From: Klebsiella phage ST437-OXA245phi4.1
Sequence record: NC_049448.1
Length of the DNA stretch: 39,642 nucleotides
Reading direction: 5' to 3' (one strand)
Below are positions 15,094 through 37,398 of this stretch, one piece after another. How positions within the stretch are numbered: the stretch's first letter is position 1; each line of letters begins with the position of its first letter. The notes beneath the pieces are model-generated. The model saw only the letters and a list, made by a program, of their open reading frames with translations. It did not search any database and was not told where the DNA came from. Both the position numbers and the translations under genes were made by a program.

Positions 15094-15960
15094 ATGACTC
15101 CTTTTGGAATTTATGGGTATATTTTCACTAAAGAAATGACATTTGATTTAGGAATATTAACTCCTCGCTTCAACAATCTTCACGAGATCAAGAAAGAAAA
15201 ATGCAACGGAGAGTCTTATATACTTACAGGTTTTTTCACTCCTAACTCAAGCGCAAATAAAAATCTCTCTCAAGCTCTCTTTGATCTTTCAGCAATTCTA
15301 AGCTTTATTGAACAAAAAAATGTAATCATAGCCCATTCACTCAAAGAGAATGAAAGCCCTTTAACATTCGGTGATGACTTCCCCATAACTTTAGATATAA
15401 AAAGGAAACGTGGCCCAGGACAAATAATAATGGAAGACTGTTTCTCTAAAGATGGAAGGTCAGCATTCATTAAGCTTGCCATTAACAAACTCAGTGAAAA
15501 CAATAAGACCAATCAAAACCCATTTAGAACAGCCTTCTTCAAATCTATGCTTTCTTTTAGAGAGAATATAAGCTATGTAGATGTAAACTATTACCTATCG
15601 TTCTCTGCACTTGAATCCCTATGTAGATATATACAAAATGATTATGCACCTTCCAGAGCTCCGCAAATAATTACAACGACTCTACAAAACTATGGTTTCA
15701 ATGTATCAAAAAAAGATAACGCTGTACCACAAAGAAACATCATGCACTATTGCGCACTTCGCAACGCATTGTTTCACAAAGGCGATTACATTGCGCTCGT
15801 CGAATATAACAATCCTGACAGCATTATATATTTGAAGGATTACTCATCCTGTATTAGCCTACTTCTCTCTTTATTGATAATGAAACACATAGGATTTGAT
15901 GACAATTATATTAATTGGGACTCATGGATTGACAGGCAACCATTCATTAGCAAAAAATAA
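15094..15960 (+). CDS. HEPN-motif protein (candidate Abi-like RNase), moron between V and S
   Basis: 288 aa, AT-rich and on the opposite strand to the tail genes. It has an Rx4H motif (RNALFH, residues 223-228) in a helical region. It occupies the position of low-GC orf30 in P2. Confidence 0.55.
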   Translation: MTPFGIYGYIFTKEMTFDLGILTPRFNNLHEIKKEKCNGESYILTGFFTPNSSANKNLSQALFDLSAILSFIEQKNVIIAHSLKENESPLTFGDDFPITLDIKRKRGPGQIIMEDCFSKDGRSAFIKLAINKLSENNKTNQNPFRTAFFKSMLSFRENISYVDVNYYLSFSALESLCRYIQNDYAPSRAPQIITTTLQNYGFNVSKKDNAVPQRNIMHYCALRNALFHKGDYIALVEYNNPDSIIYLKDYSSCISLLLSLLIMKHIGFDDNYINWDSWIDRQPFISKK

Positions 15961-23688: not shown

Positions 23689-24731
23689 TGACTGAGAATA
23701 CCGCACAGGATGCGATGCCACCTGACGTACAACCCAATGATGCAGCGACTACCCAGGCGTTCAGCTTTGGCGATCCCATTCCGGTTCTAGACCGCCGCGA
23801 ACTTCTGGACTACGTAGAATGTGTGCAAATGGACCGCTGGTATGAGCCGCCGGTGAGCTTTGACGGGCTGGCGCGGACCTATCGCGCCGCTGTACATCAC
23901 AGCTCACCGATTGCCGTTAAGCGTGACATTCTCAGCAGTACCTACATCCCGCACCGCCTGCTTAGCCAGCAGGCTTTTACCCGTTTTGTGCAGGATTACC
24001 TGGTATTTGGTAATGCCTATCTGGAAAAGCGCACTAACCGGCTCGGTGGCGTACTGTCACTGGAGCCGACCCTGGCGAAATACACGCGGCGCGGAGTTCA
24101 CCTCGACACCTACTGGTTCTTGCAATACGGCATGACCACCCAGCCCTATGAATTTACGCCGGGAAGCATTTTTCATCTGCTGGAGCCAGACATTAACCAG
24201 GAAATTTACGGGCTGCCCGGCTATCTTTCGGCCATCCCGTCAACCCTGCTCAACGAATCCGCAACCCTGTTCCGCCGGAAGTATTATCTCAACGGCAGCC
24301 ACGCAGGATTTATCATGTACATGACCGACGCGGCGCAGAACCAGGAGGACGTGAACAACATCCGCCATGCGATGAAAAGCGCCAAAGGACCGGGCAACTT
24401 CCGCAACCTGTTTATGTACTCGCCCAACGGAAAAAAGGACGGCATCCAGATCATCCCACTGTCAGAAGTAGCGGCAAAGGATGAGTTTCTGAATATCAAA
24501 AACGTCAGCCGGGATGACATGATGGCAGCGCACCGTGTCCCCCCGCAGATGATGGGCATTATTCCCAACAATACCGGCGGTTTTGGTGACGTTGAAAAGG
24601 CCAGTCGTGTCTTTGTCCGCAACGAGCTGATACCGTTGCAAAAGCGACTGCAGGAGCTTAATGACTGGCTGGGTGAGGAAGTGATACGTTTCGAACCGTA
24701 TATCTTGGATATTCAAAAAGAAAATCAATAA
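23685..24731 (+). CDS. Q: Portal protein Q
   Basis: 348 aa. It overlaps P with an ATGA junction. Confidence 0.9.
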   Translation: MMTENTAQDAMPPDVQPNDAATTQAFSFGDPIPVLDRRELLDYVECVQMDRWYEPPVSFDGLARTYRAAVHHSSPIAVKRDILSSTYIPHRLLSQQAFTRFVQDYLVFGNAYLEKRTNRLGGVLSLEPTLAKYTRRGVHLDTYWFLQYGMTTQPYEFTPGSIFHLLEPDINQEIYGLPGYLSAIPSTLLNESATLFRRKYYLNGSHAGFIMYMTDAAQNQEDVNNIRHAMKSAKGPGNFRNLFMYSPNGKKDGIQIIPLSEVAAKDEFLNIKNVSRDDMMAAHRVPPQMMGIIPNNTGGFGDVEKASRVFVRNELIPLQKRLQELNDWLGEEVIRFEPYILDIQKENQ

Positions 24732-24787: not shown

Positions 24788-25072
24788 TTACCAATTTCTT
24801 TTTTCGGAGTTTAACCAATCAGCGCATGGATAATTTCTTGACGCCCATTCTCTTTGTAAACGAGCTACAAACAGAATATCGTTACTATCAACCCTAGATT
24901 TAAGTCCATCGCGCAGTTGGGCTGCGGTTAAAGTTGTATCTATTAACCAAAACGATTCAAGATGCTTACAATATGTAAAATTTTTTAGATAGTCAAAAAC
25001 TTCATCGTAGTTTCTTCCCGGCGCCTTCAGATCATAGGTAACGCAATAAATAGCCATCTTCATGCTCCGCAT
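24788..25072 (-). CDS. Hypothetical 94-aa protein with a Cas2/VapD-fold-like pattern
   Basis: MAIYCVTYDL...DSNDILFVARL follows the beta-strand / YD / terminal hydrophobic-R-L pattern of Cas2-fold proteins, judged by eye. It is AT-rich and lies between Q and cos. Confidence 0.45.
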   Translation of the reverse strand: MRSMKMAIYCVTYDLKAPGRNYDEVFDYLKNFTYCKHLESFWLIDTTLTAAQLRDGLKSRVDSNDILFVARLQREWASRNYPCADWLNSEKRNW

Positions 25073-25254
25073 TTTTTGTCATTTGGGGAGCATTTTAGAC
25101 TACGACATCTACGACAATACGATTGCGGGATCAGACGCTCACCTTCCACCGTTCTAAAACCAAATACTTCTTCAATTTTATTCAAATCACCACCTGCAAC
25201 GACGCTACAACAAGGACAGACAGCTTCGACTTGGTATGTCATGTTCATCTCCAT
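25060..25254 (-). CDS. Hypothetical Cys4 zinc-ribbon protein (64 aa)
   Basis: CPCC...CRRCRSLKC motif. It overlaps the downstream 94-aa ORF by 13 nt, so the two probably form an operon. Confidence 0.4.
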   Translation of the reverse strand: MEMNMTYQVEAVCPCCSVVAGGDLNKIEEVFGFRTVEGERLIPQSYCRRCRSLKCSPNDKKCGA

Positions 25255-25331: not shown

Positions 25332-25350
25332 TAGCGCGCGCTCGTATCCC
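25332..25350. other. Probable cos site (19-nt cohesive-end sequence of the P2/186 type)
   Basis: The reverse complement reads GGCGTGGCGGGGATACGAG, against GGCGAGGCGGGGAAAGCAC for P2. It is oriented with its G-rich end pointing away from Q, as in P2. Confidence 0.5.
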
Positions 25351-25577
25351 CGCCACGCCTGCCCGCTTTGTGTAGTGGTTTTCATGCACCTGCATGACAC
25401 AGGCGAAAGCCCGCCAGAACTGGCGGGCCCGAGCAGAAATGATCCTTTTGCGATCATTCATTTTCATGCGCTATAGTCATGCAACAAACACATACGAACC
25501 ATATGGTTAGATTACTCATCAAGTCAGATGGATTTTCAGGCAGATTGCCACAGCAATTGTAAAGGAGCGAGATTGAA

Positions 25578-26579
25578 ATGGGTGGAGAGACTTCGGCTAT
25601 ACAACGAGTCGCGGGTAAGATTTCTGATGATATTTTCTCAGTATTCAAATGGGATCGTGCCGCTAGAGCGGATATGAATTGGGATTGTTGCCAAGAGGCT
25701 CATTCTAAGAAAACGCATCCAAGCGATGTTGTATTTTTCTACATAGATCCATATGAGGAGGAAATGGTCTATCTCAACACAGACCTCAAAAGCTATGCAG
25801 AAGGTACTATTGGGAAAAAAATAGTCGAGGGAGCTTTAACATCGCTTGCTTTAGCTACCGAATGTGCAAATGTGAGTGAAGAATGGCGATTGAAATATGT
25901 TCATGATGATTCTTTAGGTTATAACGTAAGAGGGTTATTATTCTTATATAACCATGATAACTTATATGACAAGGACTTTTATGAGAATATTACGAAAAAG
26001 TTAGACCACTCATCTATAAATTGCCCTCCAAACATCAAACTACATTTACTTGACCCTTATAAAATATCAGATTTGATAAACATATCTTCTGACATAACCA
26101 AATTAATTGGTTCAGGAAAACTTCCTCAACCTGATAAGTTCACATATTATTACCCAGATCTTTCACTAACACGAATAAAACACCCTATTAATCAGGCAAC
26201 ACCCGCAACAATTGAATTATTAACATCACCATACATTATAATAAAGCATGAGGCTTTTAGTTGGCTCAGGGATAAAAATCCTGAAGGATATGTTGTTTAT
26301 TATAATCAACCTGGGGATTCAGTAGACGAATTTGTTTACTTCTTTGATATGTTATCAACTTATCAGATACTAACCGAAGGTAAACCAATCGTATTACGCC
26401 ATTGTTACATTCATCCAAATGAAAATGCCATTCATCACTTTGAAAGAGCGAAAAAGAAATACAGCACAGACTGGCTCTTAGGCGAGGATGAAAGACTTTT
26501 TCTTAAAATCGACTTCGACAAGACAGACAAAATTGTTGTTGAATATAATCTTGAAAAAATCGGCATGGAGCAACGATAA
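25578..26579 (+). CDS. Cargo operon gene 1 (333 aa), hypothetical; possible PD-(D/E)xK-like core
   Basis: AGGAG ribosome-binding site 9 nt upstream. The gene is strongly AT-rich. Residues 51-71 (VVFFYID...NTDLK) fit a hhhD-x13-DxK pattern. No Walker motifs. Confidence 0.7.
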   Translation: MGGETSAIQRVAGKISDDIFSVFKWDRAARADMNWDCCQEAHSKKTHPSDVVFFYIDPYEEEMVYLNTDLKSYAEGTIGKKIVEGALTSLALATECANVSEEWRLKYVHDDSLGYNVRGLLFLYNHDNLYDKDFYENITKKLDHSSINCPPNIKLHLLDPYKISDLINISSDITKLIGSGKLPQPDKFTYYYPDLSLTRIKHPINQATPATIELLTSPYIIIKHEAFSWLRDKNPEGYVVYYNQPGDSVDEFVYFFDMLSTYQILTEGKPIVLRHCYIHPNENAIHHFERAKKKYSTDWLLGEDERLFLKIDFDKTDKIVVEYNLEKIGMEQR

Positions 26580-27658
26580 TGGCTAAAAAACTATATTTCG
26601 CAACTGACAAAAATATTTATGATGCATTGCATCATAAAAGGATAACCGCTGCAAAATTGCATGAATTATTGTTGAATAGAGGTGTGTTTTTATCACCAGA
26701 ACTCGACAAGGAAATACTAATTGAGGAAATATCCAAACTTCCTCACGGATTTAATGAATTAGAACACATAAAAAAACTGGTCAAAACATATGACCCAAGA
26801 GAAAGCACTACTAGTGTAAGCTTCCAAACCTCAACAAATCAGGCCGAATTAATAAGTGCAGCTGAAGCACTAAAGAAAACATGCTCACCTAGTAAAGGTC
26901 AAAGCCTGAATATTGTAGCTAAAAAAGATGGCTCACTTACAGTAGAATACAACTATGAAGAAATAGACCTGTCTAAAACTGCATTACGTCAGATCGACAA
27001 GCGGAATGTTATAATAGAACTTCGCCCTGATACTGACAAAGTTGAAGTACGTATGCCTCAAAACCCCGAGGCAAAAAAAGTTATTGAGAGCCTGCAAAAC
27101 GAGCTATCTAAAATCAAGTCCGAGCCTATCGAGCGCTTCGAAATCTCACTACTAGCAATAACTGACCCTACATTGAGAAGTCAGTTCTTTCAAGAATTAA
27201 TGAATGGCCTACGTGGTTATGAGACTGATGACGTAACAAAAGTCGAATTAAATCGCAGTACTGATGCCAGTGAGGATGAAGACAAGGAAGAAACTATTGA
27301 TACCGGATTTGTTAAGAAAGCCGTCCTGAATGGTGAAGGGGTAAACAGTTCAGCTATATTCTCTCAATTACATGAGAAAGGTTATTATATCGGGCGTATT
27401 GCATGGTCTTCAAAACCAACAAGTGGAATTGGAGATAGAATCAACGTCGAAGCATTTTTTAAAGACTCAGAGAAATGCTGTGACTTTGCCTATCAAATTA
27501 AAGGGATAAACAATCAAAAAGAAGATGGTTTCAATGTAACCATTCGCGCGGCAACGGCACAAGAGAAAAAACATATTAGTGAATTAATTGAGTCCGCCGC
27601 TGAAAATGCCTATAATATAATAATAGGATCAGAGGTGAACGAAGATGAAAAAAGTTAA
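26579..27658 (+). CDS. Cargo operon gene 2 (359 aa), hypothetical, acidic
   Basis: It starts in a TAATG overlap with gene 1. It is AT-rich, with no recognisable motif. Confidence 0.7.
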   Translation: MAKKLYFATDKNIYDALHHKRITAAKLHELLLNRGVFLSPELDKEILIEEISKLPHGFNELEHIKKLVKTYDPRESTTSVSFQTSTNQAELISAAEALKKTCSPSKGQSLNIVAKKDGSLTVEYNYEEIDLSKTALRQIDKRNVIIELRPDTDKVEVRMPQNPEAKKVIESLQNELSKIKSEPIERFEISLLAITDPTLRSQFFQELMNGLRGYETDDVTKVELNRSTDASEDEDKEETIDTGFVKKAVLNGEGVNSSAIFSQLHEKGYYIGRIAWSSKPTSGIGDRINVEAFFKDSEKCCDFAYQIKGINNQKEDGFNVTIRAATAQEKKHISELIESAAENAYNIIIGSEVNEDEKS

Positions 27659-28328
27659 ATGGCTTAAGTTAAACATACGGCTTGAGTTTGAAACAGCCGT
27701 CAGACGTCTTTCTCTTGATTCTTTTACAGAGGATAAAGGGAAAGGGTTTATTTTTGATAAAATACGCCATGATTTTGCAAGTGGGCGTTTTGTCGAGCGT
27801 ATTGTTTACCATGACAAAATATCAAGCTTTGACGGAAGTGAAACTACCGTTGAAAGAATCGAGTATCGCACTACAAATTTTAGCGTGGCTGTAGACTCTC
27901 TTCCTGTAATGCAGATCACTAACCCCCCCAGAACTTTAAAGCCTTTTTCTCAGGCTTTGGTAAAAAATCTTGGCTTAGGTGTTAGCTTGGAAGAAATAGA
28001 CATAAACCCTATAAACTGGCTTAATGAAATATCTTCAAGTGTAAATATCAATTTAACACAACTTGATATTTCAAGAGTTAGAGTCTCTGATTATGCCACG
28101 GCTAAAATGCAAATTATTGGCAGCAGTGATCTTAGGAAATATTATAAAGAGGAGTTAGAGGGTAAAAAAATACGAATTGACAGACTTGTTTGCTCTGTTA
28201 ATTCATTAGAGTATTCCGGTAAGCTCAAGATCACCAATAGCGGCCTTGCTTATATTGATGTTAGAAATGAAAATGAGTTTACGAAAATCGTTTTTGATAC
28301 GTTAAAAAAAGTCACCCTTCAATCATAG
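27645..28328 (+). CDS. Cargo operon gene 3 (227 aa), hypothetical
   Basis: It overlaps gene 2 by 14 nt. It is AT-rich, with no recognisable motif. Confidence 0.7.
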   Translation: MKKVKWLKLNIRLEFETAVRRLSLDSFTEDKGKGFIFDKIRHDFASGRFVERIVYHDKISSFDGSETTVERIEYRTTNFSVAVDSLPVMQITNPPRTLKPFSQALVKNLGLGVSLEEIDINPINWLNEISSSVNINLTQLDISRVRVSDYATAKMQIIGSSDLRKYYKEELEGKKIRIDRLVCSVNSLEYSGKLKITNSGLAYIDVRNENEFTKIVFDTLKKVTLQS

Positions 28329-28385
28329 ATGGCTTATAAGGAGTCACTTCACCTAACGCCTCGCCTTACTCGTTGTTCAACCTCA

Positions 28386-28414
28386 TAGGCGTCAGAATCA
28401 AGTTCTGACGCCTA
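28386..28414. terminator. Bidirectional hairpin terminator between the cargo operon and the DinI-like gene
   Basis: TAGGCGTCAGAA tcaag TTCTGACGCCTA, a perfect 12-bp stem. Confidence 0.5.
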
Positions 28415-28423
28415 CAACGTTTC

Positions 28424-28657
28424 TTAATGCAGCCAGCTGTCGTCTTCCCAAACCTGCTGCATGATTTCCATCACTCGTTTTTTGTCTTCATCTAGCTTTA
28501 AGCCGCTTAGCTCAACGCCGTTTGCCGAACCTTTTCGAATACGGATCGCGGTCTTTGGATAGATCGGCTGGAGATTTCGGTAAAGTTCAGCTTCCAGAGC
28601 GTCCAGTATTGCCTGGCTAATCTTCTGCTCTTTATCGATCATTATTTCAATTCGCAT
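28424..28657 (-). CDS. DinI-family protein (186 Tum-like SOS antirepressor candidate)
   Basis: MRIEIMIDKEQKISQAILDALEAELYRNLQPIYPK...QQVWEDDSWLH matches DinI (MRIEVTIAK...ETWESADDW) along its length. Start taken at the MRIEIM Met. Confidence 0.75.
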   Translation of the reverse strand: MRIEIMIDKEQKISQAILDALEAELYRNLQPIYPKTAIRIRKGSANGVELSGLKLDEDKKRVMEIMQQVWEDDSWLH

Positions 28658-28668
28658 AGAGATTCCCC

Positions 28669-28857
28669 TTAACTGGAAATGTCCATTGACCGGTTGCATT
28701 CATGGCTGCGGATTTTTGCCAGGAGCTCGTCTGTCAGCTCTGAAACCCACTGAATGGCAAGCCTCTTTTCTTCATCGCTACACTCACTATCCGCTACAAG
28801 CTTGATAAAAAAATCAATACGCTGGAGTTTCAACGACTCCAAAAGGTAATCCTGCAT
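28669..28857 (-). CDS. Hypothetical small protein (62 aa), upstream partner of the DinI-like gene
   Basis: ORF with its start taken at MQDYLL. It sits between the LexA box and the DinI-like gene. Confidence 0.35.
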   Translation of the reverse strand: MQDYLLESLKLQRIDFFIKLVADSECSDEEKRLAIQWVSELTDELLAKIRSHECNRSMDISS

Positions 28858-28907
28858 TTTCCCTCCTGACCTTACTACGGGATACAGCATAACTGTATAA
28901 ATAACCA

Positions 28908-28923
28908 CTGTTGTTATATACAG
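28908..28923. promoter_or_regulatory. LexA box (CTGT-N8-ACAG)
   Basis: The sequence is CTGTTGTTATATACAG, a perfect match to the half-sites with an AT-rich spacer. It lies 51 nt upstream of the small-ORF / DinI-like operon. Confidence 0.6.
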
Positions 28924-29019
28924 TATATTACGATTTTTCAGTTGTAAAATAGTTTTTATCATTCAATCAGATGTATCCGATGGGATCGAAGAAGAGCGAG
29001 AATTGCTAAAGACGCGTAA

Positions 29020-31404
29020 TCAGTACCACTGCCGCCATTTGTCATCTTCCTGCAGCCGCTGATTGCGGTAAAAAAGCCGCAGCCCGGCCCCCGATGGAAT
29101 GCTGCCACCACGCAGCAGTAGATCGATCTCATTCTCGCTGCCGTCAAACCCTCTGGACTTCAACTCATGTTCAAGCTGCAGGCGCAGCCGATCGTTAATT
29201 TCCTGTTTGTAACCCTTCCGCCGCTTCGGTCTTACCTGTCGCAGCCTCGCATTTAGCTCCCGTAGCTCTTTTCGGCTCATACTATTGAAGTCCGGCAGCG
29301 GTTCCAGCTGTTTTTCACCTGATAAATCCGACTCAAAATAGTTCATTTTTTCCACAGGGGGACAGTTATTGCCACGAGTCCAAGGGGCGCAAGCGCCCTG
29401 GTCGGCTGGCGCCTCCTGAACGTCAACGGCCTTACGAACCATTTTCCACTTCATCGCATGCGTGCAAATCCGTCCCTCAATAATCGGGGACCAGATGCCA
29501 TAAATACGGATGCCGTGATCGCCATAGGCTGATGGCTCGTCATTGAGTTCATAAGCCGTGCGGACCAGGTGATGTTTACGCGGAACCAGTACGCCGCCCT
29601 GTTTCATGATGTAGGTGGCAAAACACCCGGCATCGGCTGCCGCCAGCACGGCATCCAGACGCGGGTTATCCAGTACCGGCGCTCCGGCTTTTTTATCGGC
29701 CTGCTGTCGCGCGGCCTGGCCTGCCAGCAAACGCAGCTCACGGTATGCCTGACGCCCCGGAATACCAAAAAAGCGGAATTGCTGGACGCGATGCAGCGAG
29801 GCCCAGGCATTGACATGTTCGGCATTGTCCCGCAGTGATCTGCCGGTTTCTTTGCTGATTTCGTTAGCCAGGCCACGCCCGTCGATGTTCTTACTGATGT
29901 ACTTCGCGATGTAGCTGGTCGGCGTACCCTTGCGCGGGTTGATCAGCTCAGACTTAAAACGCGGGCCGGTATTGTTGCCCAGCTCCTCGCGGTCCTCACG
30001 GATGGCAAATTTACGCAGCAGTGCAGTGATGGACTTGCGGTCTTTTTTGCGCATGAAGCAAAGCAGGTGCCAGTGCACGGTGCCGTCATGGTGTGGCTCA
30101 GCAACGCGGACGCCATACCAGCGCAGCCCGGCTTTGTGCATCGCCTTACGGAAGGCGGCGAACATATGCACCAGATAATCGCTGCTCTGCCGGACCGTGG
30201 CACTGGTCCATTTTGGGTTTGGCCTGCCGTTATTGAGCGTTGCGTGAAAGCGTGACGGACAGGTGATGGTATAGAACACGGCGCATTCACCACGCATTTC
30301 TGCGATCAGCTCCAGCCCTTTAACGCAGGCCATCATTTCGTTGCGCCGGTGCGCCGGATTGCTGCTGCTGGCGTTTACCACGTCTTCCATATCCAGCGTA
30401 TCGCCCTGCTCATTGGTCAGCTCATGCGAGCGGAAGAACTCCAGCGATTTGCGGCGCTGTTCGCGTTTATGGATCACGGCCTCATAGCTGACATACGGGG
30501 ACGCCTTTTTGTTAACCAGGCAGACGGCGCGCAGCTGTTCTTCCCGCCATTCACACCGCATCTGCCACAGCTTGCGATACCACCAGTCAGCACAGAGCAT
30601 ACGGGCAAGCGAACCCGGAATAAGTTCGTATGGGACCGGGTTACGGCGGTGCTTTTTACGGCGCAGCTGCTCGAAAGCAGGCGGGATAACATCAAGGCGC
30701 ATGGCCTCAGCCGCCACCCTTTCCCATGACCGGCGGATCTCTTCCGGCGTAACGTCTTCATCCGAAAACAGCTCACCGCAGGCAGCATCCAGACACATGC
30801 TCATGTGTGCCGCCACCAAGGTAGATAACCGCTTAACCTGATCCTGGTTCATTTCAGGCAGAACCAGCAGGCCCTCCAGCCCGTCGTGGCTCGCCATAAA
30901 ACGGAATGACGCAGAAACCTGGCTGGTACGCACGCGCTCCAGGCGTTCAAGGCACGGCCTGATGGTTTCACGTAGATAGCGGGAATATGCCTTCGGCTTG
31001 CCCAGGCCCTCGAAATATTTAATGCGCTCAAGCAGTGGCTTGCTGATATGTGATGTTTCAGCGCTTACGTCCGCCAGAATCACCAGATCGGGATTAAACC
31101 GCTGCTGCTCGCGGGCCATTTTGGCACGGCTGATCAGCCGGTCCTGCTCCATTTCCCGCTGAACAGGATCACGGGATTCATTGAAGAAATAGCGGTCCCA
31201 GACCTCATTACTCAGAGCCTCGCGGCGCAGCTGTTCCTGCTCGTTATCCGCAGCATAGAGAGTAATCAGGTTTGAAAGCGCAGAAACCGGCGCTACTTCT
31301 GCCGGGTCCAGATAGGGGTTAATCGCCTTTTTAGGTAAATTCCAGGCAAAAGCAGCGGCGGAATCTTCTGCTCCGCCGTGCTTTTCAACTTCGTGATGAC
31401 TCAC
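29020..31404 (-). CDS. A: Replication initiation protein A (rolling-circle HUH endonuclease, P2 gpA / 186 A family)
   Basis: 794 aa. It has the HUH motif VHWHLL and a YIAKY tyrosine pair. Confidence 0.9.
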
Positions 31405-32249
31405 GCGCGCACCTCATGCACGACAGAGCGATCAGGGCCGCCAGCTAGATCAAAGCCAGCCCATACTCCCGGCTTCAGTACAGCAATAAGTTCGTCAGCA
31501 CTTTTTCCTTCGCCCGCGGCAACGCCGATGCTGCGCTTTACGTTAATGCGGTCATGAGTGAAATTTCGATACAGGGAACGAGTCAGAGAAGTGTCGCTGT
31601 TCGAAACAATGACCGGATGGCCTTCTGATGCCCGGCGCTCAAGAATAGAGGCCAGCTGATACTGATCGTCCTGAGTAAAACCGGCAGTGTGATAGTTGCT
31701 GAAAGTACCGTCATATGGCGGATCGCAATAAATAACATCCCCAGGCACCAATAACGCCAAAGTTTCGTCATAGCTGGCGCAGATAAACGTGGCACGGGTA
31801 GCTTTTTCAGCAAAAGCGCGGATTTCATTTTCAGGAAAATACGGTTTTTTATAATGACCGTAAGGCGCGTTAAATTCGCCCTTTTTGTTATAACGACAAA
31901 GACCACGATAGCAATGACGATTTAAGAATAAAAAGAGAGGCGCTTGCCACTCAGGATCTTTATCCTGATTGAATGAATCCCGGCTATCATAATAACCATC
32001 TGCACTATTGAAAATTTTAAACAGGTGTTTGGCACGCTCAATAAAATCTGATGCGTTTGTAGCTATCTCCCGATATAGATTTATTAAGTCAGGGTTAATA
32101 TCCGCGACAAGATAATGAGGATACTCTGTCGCCATCATCACAGCGCAGGAACCCGCGAAAGGTTCAACCAGTCGCGGGCCTGCAGGCAGGTGCTTTTTCA
32201 GCTCATGCATGATGGCGGTTTTATTGCCCGCCCATTTCAGGATGGTGCT
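31401..32249 (-). CDS. dam: DNA adenine methyltransferase (Dam family)
   Basis: EPFAGSCAV (motif I) and YCDPPY (motif IV). Start taken at [11 protein letters not shown]. Confidence 0.85.
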
Positions 32250-32476
32250 CATACAGCACCCCCATTGTAGTGTTTGCCTTTCAGCTCTGCGATTTCCTGA
32301 CAGGTGATGCAGCACTGCACACCAGGAATAGCACGGCGGCGGGCTGGCGGTATTGGTGCGTCGCAGTCAATGCACAAGACACGGGAAACGCCCGGCGCTT
32401 TATTGCGGGCGGTGTGGATGTGCCGCTGGCGTTCTTCTTCAACGCGCTGCTGTACGAGGTCCATAGAATCAGCCAT
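32249..32476 (-). CDS. TraR/DksA-family C4 zinc-finger protein
   Basis: 75 aa with the CIDCDAPIP...CCITC pattern. Confidence 0.75.
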   Translation of the reverse strand: MADSMDLVQQRVEEERQRHIHTARNKAPGVSRVLCIDCDAPIPPARRRAIPGVQCCITCQEIAELKGKHYNGGAV

Positions 32477-34825: not shown

Positions 34826-35851
34826 ATGACGATCAGAAAGCAGCCGAACGGAAAGTGGTTATGCGAGTGTTATCCGAACGGACGTGACGGGAAGCGCGTG
34901 CGCAAGCAATTTGCGACAAAGGGCGAGGCTGTAGCATTCGAAAATTTCACCATGGATGAAGTGAACAAAAAACCGTGGCTGGGTGAAAAGGAAGATCGGC
35001 GGCGTTTGTCAGAATTGATTGAGCAGTGGCACTCCCTTTACGGCCAGACGCTGGCAGACCCTAAGCGCCTAATGGCGAAATTGAATATTATCTGCAATGG
35101 CCTGGGCGATCCCGTCGCCTCTGAATTAACCGCCAGTGACTTTACAAAATATCGTGAAGCACGATTAAAAGGTGAGGTTCGTAACGAAGACGGTGCGCTA
35201 ATGTCGCCAGTAAAGCCCCGCACGGTAAACCTGGAACAGCGTAACTTATCATCCGTTTTTGGCACCTTGAAAAAGTTGGGCCACTGGTCAGCCCCTAACC
35301 CACTAGCAGGGCTGCCAACATTCAAAATCGCAGAGGGAGAACTAGCGTTCCTGGCCCCGGACGAAATTAAACGCCTGCTTGATGCCTGTGCTGACTCTCA
35401 AAGCTCCAGCTTGCTGATGATTGCAAAAATATGCCTGGCCACCGGCGCACGCTGGAGTGAGGCCGAAAACCTTCAGGGCCATCAGTTGTCAAAATACCGG
35501 ATCACCTATACCAAAACCAAAGGCAAGAAAAACCGAACCGTACCGATATCTCAGGATCTGTATGACGAACTCCCCAAAATCAGAGGGAAGCTATTCACGC
35601 CATGCAGAAAAGCCTTTGAGCGTGCAGTGAAACGCGCAGGAATCGACTTGCCAGAGGGTCAATGCACCCATGTGTTGCGTCATACTTTCGCCAGTCACTT
35701 TATGATGAATGGCGGAAACATACTGGTACTGCGAGATATTCTGGGGCATTCAGACATTAAAATGACAATGGTTTATGCTCATTTTTCACCAGATCACCTA
35801 GAAGATGCTGTGACGAAAAACCCTCTTAATAACTTGGTGTATTGGAAATGA
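34826..35851 (+). CDS. int: Tyrosine integrase (P2/186 family)
   Basis: 341 aa with HxxR...Y catalytic-region motifs (VLRHTFASH...MVYAHF). It lies downstream of cI, as in 186. Confidence 0.9.
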   Translation: MTIRKQPNGKWLCECYPNGRDGKRVRKQFATKGEAVAFENFTMDEVNKKPWLGEKEDRRRLSELIEQWHSLYGQTLADPKRLMAKLNIICNGLGDPVASELTASDFTKYREARLKGEVRNEDGALMSPVKPRTVNLEQRNLSSVFGTLKKLGHWSAPNPLAGLPTFKIAEGELAFLAPDEIKRLLDACADSQSSSLLMIAKICLATGARWSEAENLQGHQLSKYRITYTKTKGKKNRTVPISQDLYDELPKIRGKLFTPCRKAFERAVKRAGIDLPEGQCTHVLRHTFASHFMMNGGNILVLRDILGHSDIKMTMVYAHFSPDHLEDAVTKNPLNNLVYWK

Positions 35852-37398
35852 AAAAAATAACGGTCTTAGATTCAGATATCCTATCTAAAATGAAGATGAG
35901 AGCTGTCAAATCGGCAATCCGAAAATTACAGCCAGAAACATTTATTCGTCAATGTATGGATTATAATCTCCAGAGATTTAAAGATAGTCTAGACATGTTG
36001 AAACATCACCCTTGGATTGTAAATCTATGCATCAAGTGGGCAGCATCAAGCATAGGTGATAAAAGGGCCACAAAAGTTGGTGATACTCGCACACTCAATA
36101 AAATTCTACAGCAAACATACGATGTAATGCCTTACATCCCAGTTGGTTTGAAAAGTGCTGATAGTATTGATTTCTTCTTTAGAAATAATCTATATCAGCA
36201 GCTAATGTACCAAACTTCATCTACTGGTCACTACATTAGCAGAGAAGCCTTCATATTTGGAAGGCTCGATCCTCATCATAAATTATCAAGAAGGTTCTTT
36301 GAATTAACTAATTTATCAGTTGAACGCTTTGTCATGTTATCAATTACATTCACCTTCTTAATCAGCAGCAAAAAAAATGTAATAAAAGAAGTAACAGCTG
36401 ACATGTTTAGTATATTGACACCATATATAAGCCGAGAAGAAATTTTCTATTTTTTGGATTCATTATCAATTAGTTATGAAGATCTTCCTGAGTTTTGCAA
36501 AAGAAAAACCACGGAAAATCCGTTAAAAGAATACTTCTTACCTTCACCATTTATTGAGAACCCATTAATAAAATACAACGACAAATTTTTATTACTACAT
36601 ACTCAACTGACTTTAGCTAGCCTTCAAACATTTATCTATGACTTATTAAGAAGAGATGATCCTGAAAAGTTTATGGACAGCTTTGGCTCAATATTTGAAA
36701 ATCTTGTCAAGGATATATTTGATGAAAGCAAAATAAGATACATTGATGAGCAATCACTTAAAAAACATTTGCCTCAAGAAAACAAAGTGGTTGATTTTTT
36801 AATACCCCATGAGGCAGCGAACATATTCATTGATGCTAAAGGGGTTGAGATACATGAGCGGGGCATGGTTACTCTCAGTCATAGTGAAATATCAGGGAGG
36901 ATAAAAAACTCAGTATTAAAAACAATCGAACAAGCGCACGCCGTTAATAGGGAAATCCTTAACTCACCTAAATTAATAACAGATTTCAAAAGTGAATCTT
37001 ATATTTTATGCATAACGTATAAAAACCTCATGCTTGGAAATGGCACCTTTTTAGAAAAGTCATACGCCACTGATGGAGTTTCAAAAATACGGAAAAATCA
37101 CGATGATGCATATCAAATTCCAGATAGTCATATTTTTTGCATTAGCATTGAAGAATTTGAGTACCTGATGTCATCTTGTAAAGAGCATGGTCGCCAACCA
37201 TATGAAGTTTTAAGGTATGCCGTTGAAATGAATAGAACACCATCACAAACTGTATTTTTATTCATTCAGCACCTCGAAAAATTCTTTGGTCAAGTTACAA
37301 AGTCGGAAATGATTAGGAAAACAGGTTTAGATTTACTTGAACGAATGACAGAGAACATTCCCGGACTTAAACAAAATGTAAATTTGGTTAATGAGTAA
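35848..37398 (+). CDS. Cargo protein (516 aa) with a PD-(D/E)xK-like core, translationally coupled to int
   Basis: Its ATG overlaps the int TGA (ATGA). It is AT-rich. Residues about 316-331 (VVDFLIP...IFIDAK) fit the hhhD-x12-DxK nuclease pattern. Confidence 0.65.
   Translation: MKKITVLDSDILSKMKMRAVKSAIRKLQPETFIRQCMDYNLQRFKDSLDMLKHHPWIVNLCIKWAASSIGDKRATKVGDTRTLNKILQQTYDVMPYIPVGLKSADSIDFFFRNNLYQQLMYQTSSTGHYISREAFIFGRLDPHHKLSRRFFELTNLSVERFVMLSITFTFLISSKKNVIKEVTADMFSILTPYISREEIFYFLDSLSISYEDLPEFCKRKTTENPLKEYFLPSPFIENPLIKYNDKFLLLHTQLTLASLQTFIYDLLRRDDPEKFMDSFGSIFENLVKDIFDESKIRYIDEQSLKKHLPQENKVVDFLIPHEAANIFIDAKGVEIHERGMVTLSHSEISGRIKNSVLKTIEQAHAVNREILNSPKLITDFKSESYILCITYKNLMLGNGTFLEKSYATDGVSKIRKNHDDAYQIPDSHIFCISIEEFEYLMSSCKEHGRQPYEVLRYAVEMNRTPSQTVFLFIQHLEKFFGQVTKSEMIRKTGLDLLERMTENIPGLKQNVNLVNE

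Follow-up and report, generated by a model that had tools for sequence, protein, structure and literature searches.

A 2026 survey names GpA-GpQ as the main defense hotspot of P2 and the integrase-att site as a minor one. Eight systems were cloned from the P2 hotspot by Rousset et al. (2022, Cell Host Microbe). One of these is 3HP, cloned as pFR109 ("hp + hp + hp") from Escherichia coli E1114 together with its native upstream region. Under its native promoter, pFR109 protects E. coli against phage P1. Here, a block of three genes from Klebsiella phage ST437-OXA245phi4.1 is compared with 3HP and with the proteins related to it. The sequence analyzed (NC_049448.1, a stretch of 39,642 nucleotides that is called the window below) carries the block at positions 25578-28328, and its three genes, all on the + strand, are referred to as Hp1, Hp2, and Hp3.

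GAPS4 is composed of GapS4a and GapS4b and was described by Mahata et al. in the GMT-island paper and in a 2025 preprint. According to the preprint, GAPS4 assembles as an a2b2 complex with a ring of GAPS4b, and it acts as a non-selective DNase whose triggers include nalidixic acid and a DNase effector. Another point of comparison is RdgC, whose dimers are rings with a basic, DNA-holding pore. Dimers of the RdgC fold, whether rings or horseshoes, embrace DNA without sequence specificity. The fold is shared by the Iml3-Chl4 heterodimer, which is composed of a small and a large protein, and by RexA, a prophage exclusion protein of phage lambda.

The block in the window consists of three overlapping open reading frames (ORFs): Hp1 (25578-26579, 333 aa), Hp2 (26579-27658, 359 aa), and Hp3 (27645-28328, 227 aa). 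Hp1 and Hp2 overlap by 1 nt (TAATG), and Hp2 and Hp3 by 14 nt. Each protein is matched by one of the three PADLOC models for 3HP, from residue 1 to the end of both protein and model: Hp1 by PDLC03004 (E 1.8e-239), Hp2 by PDLC03005 (E 4e-248), and Hp3 by PDLC03006 (E 9.8e-158). The genes lie next to one another on one strand, in the Hp1-Hp2-Hp3 order that defines 3HP, and the same order was found in 159 other loci. With hidden Markov model (HMM) E values of 1e-158 to 1e-248 and a triad that recurs in this way, the matches are beyond chance. The reference proteins of pFR109 (Table S2A of Rousset et al. 2022) are identical to those of the window at 330/333 residues for Hp1, 354/358 for Hp2, and 222/227 for Hp3 (99%, 99%, and 98%). 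The likeness to published 3HP includes the P2 hotspot beside cos and a conserved upstream region, as the pFR109 upstream region holds the cos core, a hairpin, and a promoter stretch that are also found in the window. The differences from the E. coli E1114 system are 3, 4-5, and 5 residue substitutions in the three proteins, another prophage backbone, and another host.

The cassette is almost certainly the 3HP anti-phage system, carried as cargo of the GpA-GpQ hotspot of a P2/186-like prophage. Judged by its near-identity (98-99%) to the E. coli clone in which resistance to P1 was shown, it is an anti-phage system. A first-pass annotation, made from the letters of the sequence, had proposed an anti-phage cassette that was either 3HP or an undescribed system, and had recommended a PADLOC search. 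That search, with all three 3HP models matching over their full length, and the near-identity to the P1-protecting clone settle the choice for 3HP and bear out the anti-phage proposal; an undescribed system finds no support. The cassette itself is already known, since a nearly identical system was published and validated from this very location. PADLOC or DefenseFinder in their present versions would label it, and as a finding the identification is ordinary.

The gene order around the cassette is terminase, portal (ending at 24731), two small genes on the - strand, cos, the cassette, a DinI-family gene, and a replication endonuclease gene. This order agrees with that of annotated 186/Fels-2-like prophages, and in related phages the position of the cassette is filled with TIR/SEFIR or AIPR cargo. 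The GC content of the cassette is 0.34-0.40 compared with about 0.55-0.63 in the adjoining phage genes, and its composition is foreign to the phage core. The P2 genes old and tin lie at this same genomic position and have the same ecological role, in which a P2-like prophage shuts out rival phages. Their products are an ATPase-Toprim nuclease (Old) and a protein directed against the single-stranded DNA-binding protein of T-even phages (Tin). The two proteins are unrelated to Hp1-Hp3, and neither was matched in the PADLOC or Pfam scans.

Hp1 is the predicted effector. Homologues of Hp1, including 99%-identical and distant ones, carry the precomputed Pfam domain PF26115 (PDDEXK_GAPS4), and the recent PGAP and UniRef name for the protein is (GAPS4) PD-(D/E)XK nuclease domain protein. 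By profile-profile alignment (hhalign), Hp1 matches the GapS4a profile with 97.5% probability (E 5.8e-12) and the GapS4a of an Ewingella plasmid with 96.5% probability, and the E values against canonical GapS4a range from 1e-9 to 5.8e-12. In 42 diverse Hp1 homologues, the residues E4, H47, P48, D50, D69, L70, and K71 are invariant, giving the motif H47-P-x-D50 ... D69-x-K71. The alignment pairs KKTHPSD of Hp1 with KKTHGID of GapS4a, whose canonical motif is H46-G-x-D49 ... S69-x-K71, so that D50 of Hp1 corresponds to D49 of GapS4a. The substitutions D49A and D59A abolish GAPS4 defense, as seen for D49A in GAPS4-RiKo (2025 preprint, Mahata et al.). From these alignments we infer that Hp1 is a GAPS4a-type PD-(D/E)xK DNase with D50, D69, and K71 as its catalytic residues. 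The first-pass annotation had placed a tentative PD-(D/E)xK core in this protein with D57, D69, and K71 as candidates. The nuclease family is upheld by the GapS4a homology, PF26115, and the PGAP name, and D69 and K71 are retained. D57 was rejected as a catalytic residue, since the position is N, H, or E in homologues; the first acidic residue would be D50 instead.

Several searches returned nothing for these proteins. No function could be assigned to Hp1 or Hp3 from scans with Pfam, NCBIfam, and PHROGs models. PF26115 and PF26110 are newer than the Pfam copy used, which accounts for the empty Pfam result, and no NCBIfam model matched Hp1 even at E values up to 10 (the cutoff of the GapS4a model, NF047933, is 270 bits). 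Profile searches with Hp1, Hp2, and Hp3 against PDB sequences yielded nothing useful.

Hp2 is related to GapS4b, at a greater distance. The NCBIfam GapS4b model NF047934 matches residues 14-314 of Hp2 with 25.1 bits (E 6.8e-6), which does not reach its cutoff of 300 bits, and matches a Pseudoalteromonas orthologue of Hp2 with E 2.5e-9. Homologues of Hp2, including 98%-identical and distant ones, carry the precomputed Pfam domain PF26110 (GAPS4b_N). In hhalign, Hp2 and GapS4b align over 206 collinear columns with E 1.3e-3, compared with 0.19-0.6 for mismatched controls. These matches point to Hp2 as a remote homologue of GAPS4b.

The likeness between 3HP and GAPS4 extends from the proteins to the operon. 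Hp1 and GapS4a are homologues whose N-terminal H-x-x-D ... x-K motifs line up, and Hp2 and GapS4b are remote homologues of similar size. Both systems encode the pair in neighboring genes that overlap and follow the same order. At the level of domains, homology to the GAPS4 superfamily is seen in the presence of PF26115 and PF26110 on homologues, and by hhalign it is strong for Hp1 and weak for Hp2. By analogy, 3HP and GAPS4 may both be DNases under the control of a ring-forming partner. The two systems differ in their motifs, HPxD...DxK in 3HP and HGxD...SxK in GAPS4, and in gene number. A third gene is present in 159/159 complete 3HP loci, whereas GAPS4 is defined as a two-gene system, with a and b enough for defense. 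For comparison, a canonical GAPS4 on an Ewingella plasmid, located through a weak tblastn match, scores 290.6 bits for GapS4a (cutoff 270) and 319 bits for GapS4b (cutoff 300). Seventeen canonical GAPS4 loci were examined, 11 of which have both genes and downstream DNA, and in none of these 11 was a coupled third ORF or an Hp3-like ORF found (Hp3 HMM, best E 0.49). By this contrast in the third gene, 3HP makes up a three-component branch of its own within the GAPS4 superfamily. It falls short of the GapS4a and GapS4b cutoffs and departs from the two-gene arrangement. The homology between 3HP and GAPS4 is already implicit in the Pfam and UniRef names. The GAPS4 preprint makes no mention of 3HP, P2-like phages, or RdgC, and in the searchable literature there is no report of a 3HP-GAPS4 link or of an RdgC fold in 3HP or GAPS4 proteins.

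The predicted models of Hp2 and Hp3 both have an RdgC-like fold over most of the protein. The Hp3 model has a predicted local distance difference test (pLDDT) score of 92.3 and a predicted template modeling (pTM) score of 0.83, and two independent methods place RdgC first among its PDB matches. In Foldseek, Hp3 aligned with RdgC at E 6.5e-7 and a template modeling (TM) score of 0.56, and P. aeruginosa RdgC was also recovered. The next-best fold matches are Iml3 and CENP-L for Hp3 and Chl4 and CENP-N for Hp2. Hp2 is modeled as an N-terminal helical domain (SAP/HeH-like) followed by an RdgC-fold body. Identity to RdgC in the structural alignments is about 10% for both proteins. No RdgC match for Hp2 or Hp3 was found in Pfam, NCBIfam, or the profile search of PDB sequences, and Hp3 has no sequence relative beyond its own family in Pfam, NCBIfam, PHROGs, or the homologue and PDB profile searches. 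Hp3 as a sequence paralogue of Hp2 or of GapS4b was rejected (hhalign probability 0.2-0.5%), and the likeness between them is structural only. Hp3 is basic, with an isoelectric point (pI) of 9.2 and a family median of 8.3, and conserved Lys or Arg residues are found at K3, K5, R48, R52, R96, K99, and K154. As it has almost no invariant residues besides these positions, Hp3 is unlikely to be an enzyme.

The proteins with which Hp2 and Hp3 share this fold differ from them in several respects. E. coli and P. aeruginosa RdgC (PDB 2OWL, 2OWY) are without detectable sequence similarity to either protein. RdgC has about 300 residues compared with 227 in Hp3, and Hp2 has the extra N-terminal helical domain. 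Hp2 and Hp3 are also encoded alongside a nuclease, and are known here from monomer models. Lambda RexA, of the RexAB system, is a much weaker structural match to Hp2 and Hp3 than RdgC is and is unrelated in sequence; its partner is the membrane protein RexB, in place of the nuclease of 3HP. Iml3-Chl4 and CENP-L-CENP-N are pairs of a small and a large RdgC-fold protein that form a DNA-facing horseshoe. This pair offers a structural precedent for a possible Hp2-Hp3 heterodimer, although it belongs to a eukaryotic chromosome-segregation complex and resembles Hp2 and Hp3 in fold only.

The distribution of the family was sampled through an Hp1 alignment, covering 80 reference-genome loci and 80 viral contigs. 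The sampled genomes belong to Proteobacteria, Cyanobacteria, Verrucomicrobia, Caldiserica, Paceibacterota, and a Clostridia metagenome-assembled genome. With iterated HMMs, an Hp1-like ORF was found in 168 sources and the whole triad in 159. All nine sources without the full triad end at a contig edge, and the third gene is present in 159/159 loci with enough downstream DNA. The gene junctions in these loci are mostly overlaps of 1, 4, or 13-14 nt. A representative search of 1.84 billion proteins gave 559 clusters at 50% identity, which makes the Hp1 family a small one; canonical GAPS4 was not reached by this Hp1-profile search, whose listed matches are close relatives only. Exact copies of the proteins of the window occur in at least 1000 contigs, mostly from Klebsiella pneumoniae, and the cassette is present in 18/5,426 complete E. 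coli genomes at DNA identities of at most 96%. A megablast search with the cassette (25450-28420) found no match in 50,697 phage records. Despite this result, half of the IMG/VR viral contigs that hold the triad are P2-like, UniRef lists the Caudovirales entries A0A482IMQ3_9CAUD and A0A482IIZ1_9CAUD for Hp2 and Hp3, and IMG/VR contains contigs with 99-100% identical Hp1.

The portal-RepA slot holds the triad in 40/80 viral contigs, even where Hp1 identity is down to 36%. In one set of contigs (L125-L139, L152, and L167), Hp1 is 33-37% identical and the triad still lies between a P2-type portal gene and RepA. Such divergent triads in the same slot imply either a very old association of 3HP with it or repeated capture of different variants. 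In the reference genomes, 79/80 triads lie outside the P2-type slot, with integrases, Abi_2, and IS26 as neighbors. One divergent triad (L169; 363, 415, and 215 aa, Hp1 33% identical) lies beside IS26 on an IncR plasmid of Enterobacter roggenkampii, and similar matches are found on about 15 other plasmids of Enterobacter, Citrobacter, and Klebsiella. A 3HP variant of this type on clinical plasmids may be missed by PADLOC-type models.

These locations bear on whether the genes serve defense at all. They could instead form a recombination, RecA-modulating, or addiction module for the prophage, with P1 protection as a side effect. In favor of this are the position of the cassette, next to cos and the replication genes, the modulation of RecA by RdgC, and the neighboring DinI-like protein, another binder of RecA filaments. 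Such a role is very improbable in view of the 79/80 triads that lie by integrases, Abi_2, and insertion sequence (IS) elements away from the P2-type slot, the unrelated defense cargo that related phages hold at the same position, the foreign composition of the cassette, and the anti-phage activity measured with pFR109. A phage life-cycle role (recombination or RecA modulation) was rejected as the main explanation, as the triad is mostly found outside phages.

The mechanism proposed for 3HP begins with the operon. Hp1, Hp2, and Hp3 would be made in fixed proportion from coupled genes and would assemble into one complex, which is suggested by the conserved gene overlaps and by the presence of the triad in 159/159 complete loci. 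The RdgC-fold proteins Hp2 and Hp3 would then load onto free DNA ends or breaks that arise in infection, an example being the linear, terminally redundant P1 genome before circularization. Loading would license Hp1 to degrade DNA, and either the phage would be stopped directly or the infected cell would be killed. Hp3, the extra and fast-evolving subunit, probably tunes what is sensed or presents a surface facing phage counter-measures. This end-sensing chain is modeled on GAPS4, which is reported as a break-triggered DNase with a ring partner. It is speculation, but an end sensor would fit the entry of P1, whose DNA is linear and terminally redundant on arrival and has to be circularized. The 3HP identity and the end-sensing DNase account, taken as a whole, are moderately likely. 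The full chain, from complex formation through end or break sensing by the RdgC-fold proteins to the licensing of Hp1, is tentative and falls a little short of an even chance. A broader proposal, that 3HP and GAPS4 are one family of "DNA-end sentinels", is doubtful. In it, a PD-(D/E)xK DNase would be joined to RdgC-fold rings, an Hp2-Hp3 heteromer ring, comparable to the Iml3-Chl4 pair, would thread onto ends and activate the nuclease, and Hp3 would set which ends are foreign, possibly sparing the cos-ended DNA of the carrier P2-like phage.

The rates of evolution within the triad are relevant to the nature of the trigger. Mean pairwise identity is 0.40 for Hp1, 0.30 for Hp2, and 0.22 for Hp3, and the order of rates Hp1 < Hp2 < Hp3 holds in 94% of locus pairs. 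Much faster evolution of Hp3 and Hp2 than of Hp1 is expected of arms-race sensors, and fits an abortive infection in which Hp2 and/or Hp3 recognize a specific phage protein, such as a recombination, replication, or anti-restriction factor of P1, and release the Hp1 nuclease. The narrow protection, against P1 only, points in the same direction, and there is precedent in GAPS1, a related PD-(D/E)xK system triggered by a capsid protein, and in lambda RexA, whose exclusion does not strictly need DNA binding. A protein trigger is nevertheless unlikely. The fold of Hp2 and Hp3 is one that embraces DNA, and basic residues are conserved in Hp3. In the GAPS4 preprint, escape mutants could not be isolated and the trigger was DNA damage.

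The extent of DNA degradation bears on the outcome for the cell. In the preprint, the DNA degraded by GAPS4 was both that of infecting lambda and that of the host. This would agree with a direct, restriction-like defense in the manner of RecBCD or Old, where the complex would engage the linear phage DNA by its ends on entry and destroy no other DNA, so that the cell survives. Ring-type DNA binders thread most easily onto ends, and the linear entry of P1 is established phage biology. GAPS4 is however abortive in the preprint, where viability drops at high multiplicity of infection and the chromosome is degraded, and the 3HP operon holds no modification gene or self/non-self marker in the PADLOC, Pfam, NCBIfam, and PHROGs scans. 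Direct restriction is therefore quite improbable, more so than a protein trigger, and sensing of ends or breaks that licenses Hp1 is the reading preferred here.

Several points weigh against this preferred reading. Hp1 and Hp2 score far under the NCBIfam GapS4a and GapS4b cutoffs, and the profile-profile homology of Hp2 to GapS4b is weak, with a probability of 18.6%. The nuclease call for Hp1 is drawn from its sequence, and the Hp2-Hp3 ring is a conjecture built on models of the monomers. Hp2 is acidic overall (pI 5.3). Proteins of the RdgC fold can also act as scaffolds, as in the kinetochore pair Iml3/Chl4, so that DNA binding is no certainty. The published data on 3HP are limited to P1 protection, and the GAPS4 mechanism comes from a preprint. 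Furthermore, the reported range of 3HP is P1 only among eight phages, while that of GAPS4 is broad.

The analysis provides specialists with three leads on the mechanism of 3HP. The first two genes of 3HP are homologous to GAPS4, whose break-triggered DNase mechanism was just proposed. The RdgC fold of both accessory proteins would explain in structural terms how a GAPS4-type system might recognize DNA ends. Finally, a third gene that is strictly conserved across phyla marks 3HP as a three-component branch distinct from GAPS4. The fold, the constant presence of the third gene, and the revised set of predicted catalytic residues in Hp1 are modest additions, and they make the mechanism of 3HP directly testable.

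The cassette lies between two boundaries. On the portal side is the cos core GGCGTGGCGGGG (25348-25359, - strand), an exact match of the P2/186 type that marks the boundary of the cargo slot; it is context of the operon and lies outside the operon proper. Between cos and the promoter region of the operon is a GC-rich hairpin with an 8-bp stem and a 4-nt loop (25409-25428, + strand), with a folding energy of -19.6 kcal/mol (z -3.5; 0/200 shuffles equally stable), and this hairpin is also present in the pFR109 insert. A consensus scan gave a candidate sigma-70 promoter at 25448-25477 (+ strand; TTGCGA, 18-nt spacer, TATAGT; 9/12 matches), about 100 nt 5' of Hp1, in a stretch that is kept in the native-promoter clone pFR109. 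A promoter at this site is plausible from its sequence, though in the same scan promoter-like sites in the region were not commoner than in shuffles. The AGGAG ribosome-binding site of Hp1 (25563-25567, + strand), found by sequence inspection, is 10 nt 5' of the ATG at 25578. On the far side, a strong hairpin with a 12-bp stem (28387-28413) lies between the convergent Hp3 and DinI-like genes. Its folding energy is -23.4 kcal/mol on the + strand and -26.5 on the - strand (z -6.5 and -7.0 versus shuffles). It is probably a bidirectional terminator, although its T-tract is weak and the terminator scan did not pick the site up. The layout given by the first-pass annotation thus stands: the ORF list agrees with three coupled ORFs of 333, 359, and 227 aa and with both overlaps, the AGGAG motif is in place, the hairpins on the two sides are real and fold well beyond shuffles, and the block is more AT-rich than its surroundings. 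The slot beside cos, which had been recognized as the old/tin defense position of P2, is the known GpA-GpQ hotspot, where related phages hold other defense cargo.

Beyond the second hairpin, a DinI-family gene (28424-28699, - strand; Pfam E 2e-23) precedes the replication endonuclease gene (29020-31404, - strand). The DinI-family gene and a small phrog_698 ORF together span 28424-28962 (- strand), between the cassette and the endonuclease gene. Since DinI binds RecA filaments and RdgC modulates RecA, two kinds of protein linked to RecA and recombination stand side by side at this point of the prophage.

The portal side of cos is not empty, as two overlapping small genes lie on the - strand at 24788-25254. 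The 94-aa product is weakly Cas2-like (PADLOC Cas2b E 1.3e-4; Pfam CRISPR_Cas2 E 0.005, below cutoff; phrog_1090), and the 64-aa product has a CxxC...CxxC pattern (phrog_19700). The same pair is found in one of the viral contigs (L088). The portal-cos slot varies among E. coli relatives, which have either a single 97-aa protein or a ParA-family gene with a hypothetical gene.

The prophage carries further genes of low GC content. A 518-aa ORF at 35842-37398 (+ strand; GC about 0.33) starts 10 nt before the end of the integrase gene, and its product belongs to the GapS1 family (NCBIfam NF047931, 393 bits versus a cutoff of 320, full length). A second known defense gene is thus present in the prophage, in the minor hotspot at integrase-att; GapS1 is not among the PADLOC 2023 models. 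A 288-aa ORF at 15094-15960 (+ strand; GC 0.34) lies on the opposite strand among the tail genes, in a Z/fun-type accessory slot. Its product matches phrog_4373 (unknown function) and had no match in Pfam, NCBIfam, or PADLOC, making it a candidate uncharacterized cargo gene. Just downstream of the replication endonuclease gene, a gene at 31401-32315 (- strand) encodes a Dam-like orphan N6-adenine methyltransferase (Pfam MethyltransfD12 E 1.3e-67; PADLOC oMTase), which is typical of 186-like phages and may act in anti-restriction.

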